NCBI GenBank assembly: GCA_030668875.1
Contig: DAOVER010000038.1
Location: forward strand, 1 to 28,644
Length of the DNA: 28,644 nt
Source of the DNA: Candidatus Heimdallarchaeota archaeon
GTDB taxonomy: Archaea; Asgardarchaeota; Heimdallarchaeia; Heimdallarchaeales; Heimdallarchaeaceae
Direction: 5' to 3'
Below the pieces are notes generated by a model. That model had not been told where the DNA came from. It saw nothing but the letters and a program-made list of their open reading frames with translations, and ran no database searches. The position numbers and the translations under genes are program-made. Below, in pieces: positions 1,328-20,739 of this stretch; the stretch's first letter is position 1; each line of letters starts with the position of its first letter.

Positions 1328-2278
1328 TCAATTAGTTATTAGTAAATCACAACTAAGTGTGGAAGAAAAGTCTAGCTGAAAATTATTTGAAACGGAATCC
1401 TTGACTTTTTCGTATAAACTATAGAATTCATTAACATCCTCAAAAGATTGATCTGTTTTGATTTTATCCAAAATATTTGAAAACCCTGATCTATCAAGAA
1501 AATCGTCTTTAGCAATAACTAATAGAGATAAATCCGAATGTGAGATGTAAAGCACCTTATGGCCTTCATAACTTATCTCCTCGAGTAGATCTAATGAATT
1601 ACTTTCAGATTCTTCAAACTTCTTTCTGTATGCGTTAATTGTGTTAATAACTTCATTCCTTTCCCGTGAATTATCATGAATATGTGCTATGTTGCCATTG
1701 ATTTTTACAAAAATATCTAATGAAAGTATTTTATTCTGAAATTTTCTCTTCTCAATAAACTGTTTTACAACCAACCAATTCATAGCTTCAGAGATGTATG
1801 CACCAGATTTTACAGACACGAAGAAGAACCTGAAAGGAGAATCAATAGATTTTAAAGCAATTTCATTTAATCTAAATCCTGAAACAATAGAATTAATCAC
1901 AGCTTCTTTATCTTCAACTAAATCCCATTTGTTAGCTAAAAACAAAATGGGAGCTTTCTTATCTTCTATCCAGGAAAAACATTTCCAGAACCATTCAGCG
2001 CTTTCTTCCATCTGTGATAAATCTGAAGCATCAAAGATATATATTAATCCAGAGGACATTTTGATGTAATTTTCCCAAATATGTGTTCTAAATGCCATAT
2101 GTCCCCCCATATCCCAGATCTGTAAAGGAAGATCCCTATATGAGGCAAATTCTACATCCACTCCAAAAGTAGGTTGGGATTCAACATGATTCCCTGTTAT
2201 GAGTCTCTGTGTGAAACATGTTTTCCCTGCTTTGGGTAATCCAGTAATTGCTATGGTAGTTCTCTTGATTTCAATCAT
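1328..2278 (-). CDS. Arf/Sar1-like small GTPase with C-terminal longin/roadblock-like extension (GTPase 1)
   Basis: G1 GLPKAGKT, G2 PTFG, G3 WDMGGH, G4 NKWD, G5 VSVKSG, then AMNWL and about 140 extra residues. The fold of the extension is inferred. Confidence 0.9.
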   Translation of the reverse strand: MIEIKRTTIAITGLPKAGKTCFTQRLITGNHVESQPTFGVDVEFASYRDLPLQIWDMGGHMAFRTHIWENYIKMSSGLIYIFDASDLSQMEESAEWFWKCFSWIEDKKAPILFLANKWDLVEDKEAVINSIVSGFRLNEIALKSIDSPFRFFFVSVKSGAYISEAMNWLVVKQFIEKRKFQNKILSLDIFVKINGNIAHIHDNSRERNEVINTINAYRKKFEESESNSLDLLEEISYEGHKVLYISHSDLSLLVIAKDDFLDRSGFSNILDKIKTDQSFEDVNEFYSLYEKVKDSVSNNFQLDFSSTLSCDLLITN

Positions 2279-2281
2279 CTC

Positions 2282-17880: not shown

Positions 17881-17961
17881 AGAATTATATTAAGAATAAA
17901 GGTGTGAATAAGATTTAGTATATCTGCTTAAACAACATAATATAATATGAAGGTGTAACTG

Positions 17962-20739
17962 GTGGCAAGCAAAAAAAACAAACAAACAAAAAAGAAAAAA
18001 GCATCTCAAAAAAAATCTCCTACCGCAGAACTATTGCAAAGTTCCAAGAAAGAACTTCAATCAGTTTTGGTAAAAGTCGACAAAACTAGCTCAGAAAAAA
18101 CTTCAAAAGAAGACCTTGAAAGCGCCATACAAGAGGCTATAGGAAAATTACAACCAATTTCTGACCAAGTTCAAGAGAACAAACGTGTTTTGAAAGGAGA
18201 TTTAGAAACAGCAATTCAGGAAGTCATTGATAGTTTAATACCTGTCTCTTCTGAAGATATAGATTATTCTCTTAAGAAAAAGGATTTACAATCCGAGATA
18301 CGTGATGCTAAAGCTGGTTTAGTTAAAGCTCCTCAAGATACTGATAAAAAACCTATATTAAAAAAGGACTTGGAATCTGCCGTTCAAGATGCTCTCAATA
18401 GTTTAAAACCTGTTTCAGAATCTGATAAAAAACATGTTTTATCAAAAAAAGATTTAGAAGTAGCGATTAAAAATGTGATATCTAACCTCAGCCATGTTGC
18501 TGAAGATCAAATAAAGCACGCTTTAAACAAGCAAGATCTACAGCAAGAGATTCGGGAAACTAAGGAAGGATTGACTAAACTTAAGAAAGGAGAGATCAAA
18601 CATGCTCTCGCTAAACAAGATTTACAGAGTGAGATTCGTGATGTGAAAAAAGGTTTGAAGAAGCTGTCTAAAACAGAAAAAAGGCATGCTTTGGTGAAAA
18701 AAGATCTAGCCACAACTATTCGTGATGTAAGAACAAATCTAAAACCTGTAGAAAAGGTACAAAGACCTCAACTATCAGCAAAGCAACTTCGAACTGCTAT
18801 TAAAGGTAGTCAATCAAATCTTGAATCAGTGCCTGATAATTTACGTAATCTTACATCAGCTTCACTAAGTGAAACAATCAAGGAAGAAGGAGACAGAATA
18901 AAACGAGAACTACTTCCAATCCCAGGCGATGTAGAGATATTTGAGATTAAGAATCCGCAACATATCAAGGAGTACCTATCTGATAAATCTGATTATAATA
19001 ATCTTATGAGTCATTGGACTACTGAAGATAAAAAACCTTTATTGAAGATTACCATAAATCCACGAACACAATTTAATAAGATTGAATTAATAGATGAAAA
19101 AGACCCTCTCTCCATTGATAATTTGATCATGGGTGGGGACTTAGTACAGTTTGGTCAGGCTTACAGGTTTCTTCTAAAATATGGTTATATGAAAATAGAA
19201 AACCCATACACCTTACTTCTTACTGATAATCAATGGTACATCTGGCATCTGAAAGAAGAAATAAATCTCACTTTTATTGATATTGCTTATGCTAGGAAGA
19301 CCTCTGTAAGAGAAGTTAGAAATATTTTTCAAACCGCAGATGTGTGTATTAAACAGATTCTAGATTTTGCAGTTTATGGAGGACACTATCAACTAGTTGC
19401 AGCTCATGCAATGAAGAAGCGAGGAGTACTCATTCAAAAAGTAGGAGATACAATTATTGAAACTAAATACGATGATTATTCTGCTGAGGAAGCCTTGCTT
19501 AGAGAAATGCAGGACCAACAGTTAGATATTGAAGAAGAGAAGATCCCAAGGGAATGGAGTACTAAAGCTGCTTATAAATCTGAATCATTCTTAGGTGGTA
19601 GATATCTATGGAAAGAATGGTTGGGAGCATTAAAAAATGATGATTTGCTTTTTATGGAAAATCATGAGTTACCTACAGAAGAGCCCTATCTGCGAGAAGC
19701 ACTAGGTTTTGGAGCTAACTTTGCTCCCGATATATCTGCTAACTTTAAGAAACTAATTGGTCTTTTTAAGAATGTACCAGAGGATTTGATGAAAATAGGT
19801 AATGCTGCTTATTTCATTGGTAACATTGATAGTTTGTACTCATCACACTTCTGGAATATCCAATCATTTAAAGGAGAAGTTTCAACTTCAAAATGGAGAA
19901 GTGAATTCATAAAATTAGCAATTAAATCCTATTTAGCTGCTCTGAAGAAGTACACACTAAAAAATTCCCCTCTGCTATTTGCAATTACACAGAATGATTT
20001 GGGGAATTTTTACTCCAGTTTAGCTGAAATTACGAATAAAATCGAAAATTATAATCTAGCCATAATTGCTTATAAAGAAGCTCTGAAAGTCTTTTCTTTC
20101 GATTTGTTTAATTTTGAGTATAGTCAGGTTAATCACAATCTTGGTCTTGCTTACCAAACTTTAGCAGAACTTGAGGAGAAAGAGGTTAACAGCAAATTTG
20201 CTATATTTTCATACAAAGAAGCTACTAAAGGAAGATCCTTAGCTGATTACCCATTTGAACACGGTACCACATTGGTTAATCAAGGTGTAGCATACCAGAC
20301 ATTATCTGGAATAGAAGCAAATGAATATTATTCCACTTTTGCAGTAGAATCCTATAATGCAGCTCTAAGAACTGGTTCTCTGGATAAAATGCCTACAGAG
20401 AGAGCAATGATATATAGTAACATAGGTGTAGCGTACAGATTATTAGCAGAAACTCAGGAGAAAGTCTACAATTGCAAACAAGCTCTTTTAGCATTAAATG
20501 ATGCATTGACCATAAGAAATCAAGCTCAATTTCCATTTGAGTATGCAATATCGACCACAATACTGGGAGACGTTTATAGTGTTCTTTCATCTGAAACAAA
20601 TAGAAAAGAAAACTGTAATGTAGCTATTTCATCTTATGATAAAGCAACAAAAATATTCATTAAAAAGCATGAAAAATTCTATGATAATGTAGTGGAAAGA
20701 AAGAAACTGATTGTAGATTTCTGTAAAGAAAAGAGTTAA
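17962..20739 (+). CDS. Lys-rich N-terminus, 28-aa repeat array (WH2-like), unknown central domain and C-terminal TPR array
   Basis: GTG start with SD GAAGGTG. TPR-type units TQNDLGNFY, VNHNLGLAY, LVNQGVAY, IYSNIGVAY and TTILGDVY lie in the last third. Confidence 0.85.
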   Translation: MASKKNKQTKKKKASQKKSPTAELLQSSKKELQSVLVKVDKTSSEKTSKEDLESAIQEAIGKLQPISDQVQENKRVLKGDLETAIQEVIDSLIPVSSEDIDYSLKKKDLQSEIRDAKAGLVKAPQDTDKKPILKKDLESAVQDALNSLKPVSESDKKHVLSKKDLEVAIKNVISNLSHVAEDQIKHALNKQDLQQEIRETKEGLTKLKKGEIKHALAKQDLQSEIRDVKKGLKKLSKTEKRHALVKKDLATTIRDVRTNLKPVEKVQRPQLSAKQLRTAIKGSQSNLESVPDNLRNLTSASLSETIKEEGDRIKRELLPIPGDVEIFEIKNPQHIKEYLSDKSDYNNLMSHWTTEDKKPLLKITINPRTQFNKIELIDEKDPLSIDNLIMGGDLVQFGQAYRFLLKYGYMKIENPYTLLLTDNQWYIWHLKEEINLTFIDIAYARKTSVREVRNIFQTADVCIKQILDFAVYGGHYQLVAAHAMKKRGVLIQKVGDTIIETKYDDYSAEEALLREMQDQQLDIEEEKIPREWSTKAAYKSESFLGGRYLWKEWLGALKNDDLLFMENHELPTEEPYLREALGFGANFAPDISANFKKLIGLFKNVPEDLMKIGNAAYFIGNIDSLYSSHFWNIQSFKGEVSTSKWRSEFIKLAIKSYLAALKKYTLKNSPLLFAITQNDLGNFYSSLAEITNKIENYNLAIIAYKEALKVFSFDLFNFEYSQVNHNLGLAYQTLAELEEKEVNSKFAIFSYKEATKGRSLADYPFEHGTTLVNQGVAYQTLSGIEANEYYSTFAVESYNAALRTGSLDKMPTERAMIYSNIGVAYRLLAETQEKVYNCKQALLALNDALTIRNQAQFPFEYAISTTILGDVYSVLSSETNRKENCNVAISSYDKATKIFIKKHEKFYDNVVERKKLIVDFCKEKS
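18112..18831 (+). repeat. Nine tandem repeats of about 84 nt (28 aa), pattern L-x3-[IV]-x6-L-x2-[VILA]
   Basis: DL/QL at residues 51, 80, 108, 136, 164, 192, 220, 248 and 275. Confidence 0.9.

Follow-up and report, generated by a model that had tools for sequence, protein, structure and literature searches.

Four predicted Arf-type GTPases and a GAF-PAS sensor as the conserved core of a Heimdallarchaeaceae locus with a variable two-component block

Proteins in which a small GTPase is fused to a roadblock or longin domain are already known from Asgard archaea: Tran et al. (2024; PMC10933270) described such fusions as "Rag-like", noted an insert in their switch II, and predicted that the products of a gene pair in an MK-D1 operon dimerise via their C-terminal domains. 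As a rule, they reported, GTPase genes do not share operons with those for roadblock or longin proteins. Most of the longin-domain regulators characterised to date are GEFs or scaffolds, and it is a GP motif in combination with an arginine finger that is taken to be the mark of those longins that are GAPs; both features are present in Heimdall longins, although their GTPase partner was left open in that work (PMC12290439). Sensor kinases or receiver-fold proteins encoded together with a small GTPase and a regulator of the roadblock/longin superfamily are known from the Frz/RomR-RomX-MglA-MglB system of Myxococcus and from the actinobacterial conservons (CvnA-D).

The stretch of DNA considered here (the window, 28,644 nt) is one complete 28.6-kb contig of a 3.2-Mb Heimdallarchaeaceae MAG that is 92% complete (genome G000), and its features are collected in Table 1. 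An earlier note on this DNA had placed two histidine kinases, three intact receivers, one degenerate receiver and a PAS-wHTH protein on one strand, and a GTPase, a PAS sensor, a second GTPase and a repeat protein, in that order, on the opposite arm; every gene was found where the note had put it, both arrangements were confirmed (for the first, using Pfam and alignment), and so was the remark that no intact receiver in the locus carries an output domain. Some of the genes are very closely packed, GB lying 3 nt upstream of GA and the pseudo-receiver gene ending 2 nt before GB, while the last 26 nt of the hybrid kinase gene are shared with the gene for the 138-residue receiver.

Table 1 Genes and promoter motif copies of the locus, in window coordinates.
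Feature	Coordinates	Strand	Description and basis
GTPase GA	1328..2278	-	316 aa; Arf-type G domain (res 5-170) + ~140-aa C-terminal tail; Pfam Arf 97.9 bits
GTPase GB	2282..3184	-	300 aa; Arf-type G domain + tail; Pfam Arf 115.8 bits
Pseudo-receiver	3187..3738	-	183 aa; recovered by REC query of genome
Promoter motif copy 1	3820..3845	-	ahead of pseudo-receiver-GB-GA operon
PAS-PAS histidine kinase	3850..5295	-	481 aa; H-box RHDLNN, HATPase_c; Pfam + sequence
Stand-alone intact receiver	5445..5885	-	146 aa; Pfam Response_reg 66.5 bits; alignment
Stand-alone intact receiver	5917..6333	-	138 aa; Pfam Response_reg 72.7 bits; alignment
Hybrid histidine kinase	6308..10552	-	1414 aa; MEDS-PASx4-GAF-HisKA-HATPase_c-REC; Pfam
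Promoter motif copy 2	10639..10664	-	ahead of hybrid kinase operon
One-component regulator	10669..14382	-	1237 aa; 8xPAS-DUF835-winged HTH; Pfam
Promoter motif copy 3	14478..14503	+	divergent gap, pointing to GC
GTPase GC	14550..15458	+	302 aa; Arf-type G domain + tail; Pfam Arf 112.9 bits
Sensor (PAS protein)	15483..16799	+	438 aa; GAF-like, PAS, C-terminal putative GP-motif-class longin
GTPase GD	16879..17823	+	314 aa; Arf-type G domain + tail (186-296); AF2 model; Pfam Arf 112.8 bits
Promoter motif copy 4	17845..17870	+	ahead of repeat/TPR gene
Repeat/TPR protein	17962..20739	+	925 aa; Pfam TPR_12; eight 28-aa repeats

Comparison with relatives establishes that the conserved core of the locus is the four GTPases together with the GAF-PAS sensor, and not the kinase block. 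All five genes are clustered in genera g1 and g2 of the Heimdallarchaeaceae, GA having 1:1 orthologues in two genera; the order sensor-then-GD is kept in nine genomes, and in two (G002 and G013) GB and GC are directly divergent with no gene in between. As their conserved partner the GTPases have the PAS-longin protein rather than a receiver. On balance, we lean towards reading the locus as a signal-gated small-GTPase module with an optional two-component input.

As judged from profiles and models, the G domains are Arf-type and nearest to Asgard ArfR. Pfam Arf (PF00025) recognises all four above its cut-off of 22.3 bits, and when a profile of the family is compared with the PDB the top 60 matches all belong to the Arf family, the best being Asgard ArfR (8OUL, E 6.7e-43), followed by Arf1, Arl1, Arl3 and Arl8; for the GD model (AF2; pLDDT 85, pTM 0.83) the best PDB matches are HodArfR1 and Arl8, with Foldseek and VIA in agreement. 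The distinction drawn in the earlier note between these GTPases and the MglA-type proteins of Myxococcus and the conservons holds. An N-terminal amphipathic helix, which in Arf proteins toggles with the interswitch, is absent, in that the P-loop begins at residue 10-25 in all orthologues, residues 1-10 of the AF2 model are coil leading into strand 1, and alignments to ArfR begin only at chain residue 12-14. Switch II reads DMGGH in GA, DIGGQ in GB, DLGGH in GC and DVGGH in GD, the last residue among orthologues being Q or H for GA, always Q for GB and always H for GD.

Each GTPase is also predicted to carry a C-terminal alpha/beta tail in which the elements follow the longin order (strand-strand-helix-strand-strand-strand-helix-helix in the AF2 model of GD), the class being either longin or roadblock. 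PDB searches with the GTPase return matches that are filled by the G domain, and the tail has no profile similarity to the GP-longin family described below (hhalign probability 0.1%). A two-domain match was found in the Atlas (TM 0.56, residues 8-312), to a cluster carrying both Arf and Gtr1_RagA. The Gtr1_RagA HMM itself matches none of the four GTPases at E <= 0.01; this model appears solely in the precomputed Pfam entries of one orthologue. If the tails do mediate pairing, the GTPases would probably associate as GB with GA and GC with GD.

The sensor comprises a GAF-like domain (residues about 40-140), which together with the PAS domain (188-278) might read a small-molecule, redox or gas cue, and a C-terminal domain (303-436) for which the AF2 model (pLDDT about 85-94) gives strand-strand-helix-strand-strand-strand-helix-helix, as is required of a longin fold. 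Notable residues in this domain are G313-G314, FGPLP (350-354) and D377-x-R379. The domain belongs to a family of 112 representatives, and among 43 members the first G of the strand1-strand2 loop is invariant (43/43), as are GPLP and, in the strand4-strand5 loop, D-x-R (43/43), the Arg of which (R379 in the sensor) is a candidate arginine finger and a possible counterpart of FLCN R164 or NPRL2 R78. Placement of the fold depends on a family member, P0076, rather than on the sensor itself: its structural neighbours in the Atlas include C9orf72 (TM 0.61), NPR2 (TM 0.54), a Heimdall cluster with Folliculin on 23% of its members, and Asgard Arf-fused proteins. In Pfam, neither the Folliculin nor the NPR2 model matches the sensor, the former finding one of the 43 family members at E 0.012, which is below cut-off, and genome scans with PF11704 and PF06218 gave nothing at this locus. 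Taken via P0076, the output domain of the sensor looks like a longin of the FLCN/NPRL2/C9orf72-like "GP-motif" class.

Within the module reading, the longin would govern which nucleotide the GTPases on either side carry; a GAP role is the most likely one, with GD as its first target. A GAP is not the only role that such a domain could have, and it is possible, though we consider it the less probable case, that the sensor longin is instead an exchange factor, a dimerisation platform (of TRAPP, DENN or MglB type) or a tether for the GTPase tails. The prevalence of GEFs and scaffolds among characterised longin regulators (PMC12290439) is consistent with this, as is the matching order of secondary-structure elements in the GTPase tails, with which the longin could pair; moreover, the locus sensor and its orthologues have GG (G313-G314) where GP is said to mark GAP longins. 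Against it, P follows the loop G in 32 of the 43 members of the wider family, the Arg is invariant in all of them, and, among eukaryotic proteins, it is C9orf72 and NPR2 that come structurally closest (in addition to the Folliculin-tagged archaeal cluster) and not the TRAPP or SNARE longins.

The association between GTPases and GP-longins is not confined to this locus. A compact trio of two long GTPases and a GP-longin, located apart from the main locus on contig C71 of the source genome, is an independent second instance of it, and among 40 distant GP-longin loci there are three GTPase adjacencies and one direct GTPase fusion, as against one GTPase in the outer flanks; in the other 36 of these 40 the GP-longin gene has no GTPase neighbour. 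Elsewhere the GP-longin module is fused to REC, REC-PAS, PAS, TPR and NosD domains, the receiver-longin fusions occurring both in the source genome and in other Asgard archaea, and it is a widespread Asgard signalling output.

Four promoters in the window, namely that of the hybrid-kinase operon and those of three GTPase-side operons, share a 26-bp element made up of three phased 10-bp repeats that lies 5' of an AT-rich, TATA-like stretch. There are four exact matches in the window and none in 100 shuffles, and when sites were scored across the 3.2-Mb genome by a leave-one-out procedure, each was outranked by the other three sites alone; the motif is private to the locus and occurs nowhere else in the source genome. 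Among relatives, G001 and G023 carry it at the equivalent promoters and G006 at part of these, relatives with a divergent wHTH protein have a variant of it, and in the fetched loci of G002, G013, G024 and G028 neither the motif nor the wHTH gene was found. It is present in G010, G016 and G017, where the contigs end before any wHTH gene could appear, while G013, which lacks the motif, nevertheless encodes a wHTH homologue (40% identical) on a different contig. The motif largely tracks the PAS-wHTH gene, a correlation drawn from close kin. The 8xPAS-DUF835-wHTH protein at the head of the locus is most likely the motif binder; the HTH_24 model clears its cut-off in this protein only if the final 73 of the 1237 residues are scanned by themselves. 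Binding of this kind could co-ordinate four units: pseudo-receiver-GB-GA, the hybrid kinase with two receivers, GC-sensor(-GD), and the repeat/TPR protein.

This last protein consists of a Lys-rich N-terminus, eight 28-residue repeats (residues 41-265) that are conserved in its orthologues, a middle part and C-terminal TPRs; its gene adjoins GD in five genomes, and it is a genus-specific member of the regulon. The repeats follow the pattern L-x3-I ... L-K-(P/K)-V with heptad-like spacing, and four of the eight units contain Pro. The label "candidate actin regulator" given to it earlier finds no support from the Pfam WH2 model, which finds nothing in residues 1-413 at E <= 10 and nothing at this locus in a six-frame scan of the genome, and the proposed link to the cytoskeleton had no other basis than this same repeat.

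The two-component genes themselves are clearly identifiable as such: the kinases have an H-box and HATPase_c, and the three intact receivers, with their phospho-Asp, align with DD, D, T/S and K (Pfam; alignment). The "degenerate receiver" earns that description only in part, as its acidic pair is lost (AR for DD) while the phospho-site Asp and aligned Lys are kept (alignment); it scores only E 0.084 against Pfam Response_reg, and its orthologues precede GB in G001, G023, G010 and G016. When the block's linkage to the GTPases was checked by synteny, as the earlier note had proposed, the outcome was mixed. Within the genus, at least eight genomes (G000, G001, G006, G010, G016, G023, G015 and G019) show the linkage, but in G002, G013, G017, G024 and G028, all of which have the GTPases intact, no such block was found at the locus; in G023 the block has decayed, with the kinases deleted and the pseudo-receiver, GB, GA and the motif still in place. 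The two-component genes are a shared-promoter, lineage-variable addition, present in some relatives only.

These observations bear directly on the idea that the kinases act through single-domain receivers which, with the pseudo-receiver as an adaptor, address the Arf-like GTPases and, via the repeat protein, the cytoskeleton. We regard this as unlikely. In its favour, in addition to the linkage and to the private motif common to the hybrid-kinase and GTPase operons, receiver-fold genes occur inside GTPase operons in three non-orthologous arrangements (the pseudo-receiver before GB-GA; an Asp-to-Asn receiver before an extra GTPase, GB and GA in G015; an intact receiver before sensor-GD in G019), the locus holds four of the genome's roughly 12 receiver ORFs and two of its roughly 12 kinase ORFs, receiver-longin response regulators exist, and an ARF GTPase has been co-immunoprecipitated with Lokiactin in another Asgard archaeon (PMC13716822). 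What weighs against it, besides the five genomes without the block, the state of G023 and the failure of the WH2 model to match the repeat protein, is that neither the C71 trio nor three other long GTPases have a kinase or receiver within 10 kb, and that a search of the 92%-complete genome with the HPt model (PF01627) gave nothing at E <= 1, although control genomes respond. Because no HPt domain was found, the multi-step "phosphorelay" suggested earlier is not evident; of the broader suggestion that phosphosignalling feeds the GTPases, the linkage and common promoter motif stand, while the conserved partner has turned out to be the PAS-longin protein.

Still less probable is that the block is a passenger, an independent signalling cassette that inserted between two GTPase operons, with at most a common transcription factor and no cross-talk, which would suit its patchiness and decay within one genus, the direct divergence of GB and GC in two genomes and the lack of structural or fusion evidence joining locus receivers to locus GTPases, but sits poorly with a single private motif at the hybrid-kinase and three GTPase-side promoters, with receiver-like genes in GTPase rather than kinase operons, and with linkage kept in at least eight genomes despite rearrangements.

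In the signal-gated module that we prefer, the kinases and single-domain receivers would be a lineage-variable extra input, and any route from kinase to GTPase would probably run through the receiver-fold adaptors in the GTPase operons or through the separate receiver-longin response regulator of the genome. More speculatively, and in our view rather doubtfully, the locus could represent an archaeal forerunner of Rag-GATOR1/FLCN-type signalling, with Arf-fold GTPases that their longin-like tails hold together in pairs and that are switched by a ligand-sensing longin GAP, the same GAP-type longin being wired as a response-regulator output in Heimdallarchaeia. If that were true, two-component phosphorylation and PAS/GAF sensing would have converged on eukaryote-like GTPase switches before eukaryogenesis.

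As regards known systems, the best profile and fold matches of the G domain are to ArfR (HodArfR1, GerdArfR1; PDB 8OUK/8OUL/8OUM) and Arf/Arl/Sar1, with which it shares the DxGG(Q/H) switch II and the NKxD motif (against ArfR, profile E 6.7e-43, Foldseek E 1e-15 and TM by target 0.81). Unlike Arf, the locus GTPases do without the N-terminal amphipathic helix, which the ArfR authors treat as the defining Arf feature, and they have an extra C-terminal domain of about 130 residues, one more residue in switch II and a conserved gene quartet. The combination of a G domain with a C-terminal alpha/beta domain, the pairing of the genes and the Atlas two-domain match to a cluster tagged Arf and Gtr1_RagA all recall Rag/Gtr, in which a C-terminal roadblock domain mediates obligate heterodimers, and from which the locus proteins differ in that their G domain is Arf-type by sequence, with no Gtr1_RagA match at E 0.01, and their tail follows the longin rather than the classic roadblock order. 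The sensor likewise recalls the longin GAPs GATOR1 (NPRL2) and FLCN-FNIP and the Arf GAP C9orf72-SMCR8 in being a sensing-coupled partner whose predicted longin comes from a family of GP type and has an invariant Arg; here, however, that longin is part of one polypeptide with GAF-PAS, neither a DENN subunit nor a partner longin was identified, and a lysosome is absent. The resemblance to Myxococcus and the conservons lies in the encoding together of the three kinds of component. Here, though, the GTPase is Arf-type, the pairing of MglA with a roadblock protein (MglB/CvnB) is not seen, a putative GP-motif longin that takes its input from GAF-PAS would serve as regulator, relatives can do without the kinase block, and neither for RomX nor for DUF742 was an equivalent identified. 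With the Rag-like fusions of PMC10933270 the GTPases share the kind of fusion; what departs from the pattern reported there is that a longin sensor lies between two GTPase genes, that this arrangement is conserved across genera, and that the genome holds a second such trio.

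With the gene content, domain folds, conservation pattern and shared cis-element of the locus established, its real centre proves to be a module of a sensor-longin protein and Arf-fold GTPases, to which the two-component cascade appears to be an accessory input with a common promoter element. The observation made in the earlier note is confirmed, and its interpretation has partial support. The window, at 28,644 bp, is a complete contig of a 3.2 Mb metagenome-assembled genome with about 32% G+C, and ORF calling and Pfam bear out each gene previously listed, in two arms that diverge from a 167-bp gap (see table). 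When the last 73 residues of the DUF835 protein were scanned alone, HTH_24 reached 22.3 bits (cut-off 21.9); a dozen wHTH families concur on the winged helix. In the receiver alignment the three intact receivers retain DD, D, T and K, whereas in the 183-aa protein and its orthologues the acidic pair is replaced by AR or AG, with the Asp and an aligned Lys kept. The 183-aa protein must therefore be considered a pseudo-receiver, if slightly less degenerate than was earlier supposed.

Features of the locus and of related loci, with coordinates where available
Feature	Coordinates	Strand	Position
8xPAS-DUF835 protein with C-terminal winged helix		minus	first gene from the divergent gap
Hybrid kinase, 1414 aa (MEDS, PAS, GAF, HisKA, HATPase_c, REC)		minus	
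Two stand-alone receivers		minus	after hybrid kinase
PAS-PAS kinase, 481 aa		minus	after stand-alone receivers
Receiver-like protein, 183 aa		minus	after PAS-PAS kinase, before GB
GTPases GB and GA		minus	end of minus arm
GTPase GC		plus	first in plus arm
PAS protein (sensor), 438 aa		plus	second in plus arm
GTPase GD		plus	third in plus arm
Repeat/TPR protein, 925 aa		plus	fourth in plus arm
Repeats of the 925-aa protein	window 17962-18950		
nadC, nadA and NAD-kinase-like gene	window 20763-24025		
Fifth small GTPase and two ORFs	window 24101-25695		
Resolvase, eIF-2B-family and TnpB-like genes	window 25768-28565		contig end
Deletion scar in G023	L013:10027-11257 (G023:C107)		
Orphan receiver-longin, 284 aa	G000:C1:6165-7019	plus	
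Second core instance (C71 trio)	G000:C71:33172-35956 (L023:7172-9956)	minus	
G domain-longin fusion, 342 aa	L029:5495-6523 (G035:C4)		
Beta-helix-longin proteins P0073, P0074	e.g. G023:C84:4021-4437		

The AF2 model of the sensor (pLDDT 83) has four parts, including a long helix and a C-terminal domain (residues 303-436) in longin order, and an exhaustive HMMER search found 112 cluster representatives that share this domain. Among 43 aligned representatives, both the Gly in the loop before strand 2 and a GPLP motif are invariant or nearly so, the residue after the Gly is Pro in 32, and Asp-x-Arg is present in every one. A GP motif before strand 2 together with an arginine finger has been described as specific to the GAP-subunit longins FLCN, NPRL2 and SMCR8/C9orf72, and such longins were also reported in Heimdallarchaeia, where the GTPase partner was left as a question (PMC12290439). 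The sensor's longin family appears, on motifs and modelled fold, to match this class, but unlike FLCN, NPRL2 and SMCR8, which have the GP motif and the arginine finger, the window's own sensor has GG in the loop before strand 2, with R379 as candidate finger. The fold comparison was made by proxy, using the ESM Atlas model of P0076, a stand-alone family member that matches the sensor domain at E 2.7e-12, in place of the sensor's own domain; the structural neighbours of P0076 comprise a Heimdallarchaeal cluster with Pfam Folliculin in 23% of its members, two Asgard clusters of Arf-fused proteins and, in eukaryotes, C9orf72 (TM 0.61) and NPR2 (TM 0.54). The Pfam Folliculin and NPR2 models themselves did not match the sensor, nor did genome scans with either find anything at the locus; the GP-longin profile gave only chance coiled-coil matches against PDB sequences, and a word-indexed search with the family alignment returned only fragments of orthologues.

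All four GTPases score 98-116 bits with Pfam Arf, and the best PDB match of the GD-family profile is the crystallised Asgard ArfR (8OUL, E 6.7e-43), followed by eukaryotic Arf1, Arl1, Arl3 and Arl8, with Rag absent from the best 60 matches; Foldseek and VIA-align concur with the Arf-type assignment of the G domain. The ArfR authors regard an N-terminal amphipathic helix as the defining feature of the Arf family. No such helix was found here, the P-loop starting at residue 10-25 in all orthologues and strand 1 of the AF2 model having no helix ahead of it. The switch II motif is DxGGQ in all GB orthologues and DxGGH in all GD orthologues, and has Q or H in those of GA and GC. Each GTPase also bears a tail of about 130 aa, which in the AF2 model of GD (pLDDT 85, pTM 0.83) runs strand-strand-helix-strand-strand-strand-helix-helix, that is, in longin order. 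Scanned alone, the four tails gave no significant Pfam match (the best being Longin at E 0.064, for GA); they show almost no cross-similarity in phmmer, and hhalign against the GP-longin family gave a probability of 0.1%, the tails being, as judged by sequence, too diverged to match one another or any Pfam family. The fold searches of PDB, AFDB and the Atlas used full-length models, and the matches that they gave cover the G domain or GAF/PAS; one Atlas neighbour of a GTPase nevertheless spans both domains (TM 0.56, residues 8-312), and its cluster is tagged Arf and Gtr1_RagA. A pure Rag/Gtr assignment was dropped, as the G domains are clearly of Arf type by sequence, and a fair description is of a Rag-like architecture of two domains in which the G domain is of Arf type. 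The genome encodes nine long paralogues of this type, and similar Asgard fusions have already been described by Tran et al. (PMC10933270).

GP-longins are by no means confined to this sensor. In a sample of 150 genomes of the phylum every member of the window's class has them, with 3-11 copies per genome, but few other genomes do; Pfam places them C-terminal to REC (in a 300-aa protein), REC-PAS, PAS, TPR and NosD/beta-helix domains in family representatives; REC-longin proteins make up 7 of the 40 loci sampled from other families, and such forms are named ‘response regulator’ by their sources in Odinarchaeota and Hodarchaeales. The GP-longin is, in short, a signalling output module. An independent, paralogous instance of the window's core lies on another contig (C71) of the same genome, where a 263-aa GP-longin protein comes after a pair of long Arf-like GTPases, of 336 and 329 aa, its gene overlapping the preceding GTPase gene by 8 nt; the longin is N-terminal in this protein, with GPE, GPIPVP and DVR motifs. 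This trio sits between housekeeping genes (BacA, GNAT) with no kinase or receiver nearby, and a simple scan of its 329-aa GTPase did not find the DxGG switch II motif. Of the GP-longin genes at the 40 distant loci, three adjoin a GTPase gene and another encodes a fusion with an Arf-type G domain, against one GTPase in the roughly fivefold larger outer flanks; these counts are small, and 36 of the genes lack a neighbouring GTPase.

Three longin proteins may be recorded here individually. One, from the window's own genome, is an orphan response regulator of 284 aa in which an intact receiver has a GP-motif longin (DPR motif) as its output; it has no adjoining kinase, and frames of this length recur across the family. 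In another family of the order a single 342-aa protein combines an Arf-type G domain with a GP-motif longin, and a genus-wide protein of about 600 aa joins NosD/right-handed beta-helix repeats to a C-terminal longin that shares about 50% identity with that of the sensor.

Conservation was followed by retrieving loci around sensor orthologues and scoring the ORFs there against the proteins of the window. All four GTPases and the sensor form a cluster both in the window's genus and in a second genus of Heimdallarchaeaceae (G024, G028), GD lies directly after the sensor in nine genomes, and the 925-aa gene follows GD in the window's genus only. The kinase/receiver block is full, or consistent with full, in G000 (the window's genome), G001, G006, G010 and G016, partial or rearranged in G015 and G019, reduced by deletion in G023, and not present at the locus in G002, G013, G017, G024 and G028. 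The scar in G023, which still has the promoter motif in front of it, consists of 264 aa of the hybrid kinase, with MEDS as the only domain left, and of the second kinase reduced to a PAS/HATPase chimera of 110 aa, and the pseudo-receiver, GB and GA remain; GB and GC are directly divergent in G002 and G013, and in G017 the motif stands immediately before GB, the pseudo-receiver being absent. The block is dispensable and evolutionarily labile, but it is linked to the GTPases in relatives, and the association noted earlier therefore holds within the genus.

In each of four intergenic regions there is an element of three phased 10-bp repeats (TTTYCMYRTT), which lies 5′ of a TATA-like, AT-rich stretch and points the same way as the downstream gene; the first genes of the units so headed are those for the pseudo-receiver, the hybrid kinase, GC and the 925-aa protein. 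A 26-nt degenerate pattern has 4 exact matches against 0 in 100 shuffles, and a reversed-pattern control gave zero matches in 30 genomes. In leave-one-out PWM scans of the whole genome only the three sibling sites outrank each held-out site, and the four score 35-42 bits against 22.5 for the next best, so the element is private to this locus. In G001 and G023 the same four promoters have it, as do those that are visible in G006, G010 and G016. In G001 and G006 it is accompanied by a regulator whose DUF835-wHTH part is closely orthologous (83-84% identity), and divergent regulators (48% identity in G015) accompany variant repeats in G015 and G019; neither element nor wHTH gene was found at the fetched loci of G002, G024 and G028, and G013, without the motif, has a 40%-identical wHTH homologue on another contig. 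From this distribution the 8xPAS-DUF835-wHTH protein is likely to be the cognate factor, a candidacy that rests on correlation among close kin, three motif-bearing contigs ending before the regulator position. The element lies just ahead of the core promoter, which, on the established architecture of archaeal promoters, suggests that the factor activates.

The 925-aa protein had been put forward as a candidate actin regulator. After a Lys-rich N-terminus it has eight conserved 28-aa repeats (consensus DTIKHALSKKDLESAIRDVIGGLKPVSK), kept in five orthologues and present at the protein level only, Tandem Repeats Finder having found no DNA-level repeat in the gene. Their pattern L-x3-I ... LK(P/K)V recalls WH2, the genome encodes three actins, and an ARF GTPase co-purified with Lokiactin in another Asgard (PMC13716822). 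Against this, the WH2 model matched neither the protein nor, in a genome scan, anything at the locus, the hydrophobic spacing is heptad-like and Pro breaks half of the units. The proposal is unsupported here, and a tie to actin seems improbable. For the protein as a whole, an Atlas feature search gave only generic TPR clusters, below 0.85.

Elsewhere in the window, nadC and nadA stand head-to-head with a gene for a 354-aa NAD-kinase-like protein with a C-terminal winged HTH (MarR_2/TrmB-type matches), a candidate NAD(P)-responsive regulator. There is also a fifth small GTPase, a divergent one of 233 aa, which matches Ras/Roc weakly and has a long insert behind its P-loop; the next two ORFs (120 and 148 aa) have no match in Pfam and may form with it another GTPase-plus-partners unit. 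At the contig end an eIF-2B-family gene is flanked by genes for a serine resolvase of 238 aa and a TnpB/OrfB_IS605-Cas12f-like protein of 380 aa, a mobile-element footprint beside the locus.

As to mechanism, the GAF-PAS sensor would set the nucleotide state of the flanking GTPases through its GP-class longin, which by analogy with FLCN, NPRL2 and SMCR8 is most likely an Arg-dependent GAP; the GTPases would act as tail-mediated pairs, the wHTH protein would co-induce all four units, and the kinases would add further, optional input. That input would most plausibly make contact through the receiver-fold proteins inside GTPase operons, which occur in three non-orthologous arrangements, with the orphan receiver-longin regulator as another candidate. 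A scan of the genome found no HPt domain, so a multi-step phosphorelay is not evident.

The module offers a concrete candidate answer as to the partners of the Heimdallarchaeal GAP-type longins (PMC12290439), the conserved candidate pairings being that of the sensor-longin with GC and GD and that of the C71 longin (263 aa) with the two GTPases of its trio, while the private element and its likely regulator provide a route to the conditions under which the module is expressed. Its interest for the field of eukaryogenesis is high: longins fused to GAF-PAS here, and to receivers elsewhere, would put signal-controlled GTPase regulation in archaeal relatives of eukaryotes. Such regulation is the logic of nutrient sensing at the lysosome, and a small GTPase with a longin/roadblock regulator under sensory control is a kind of system already known.
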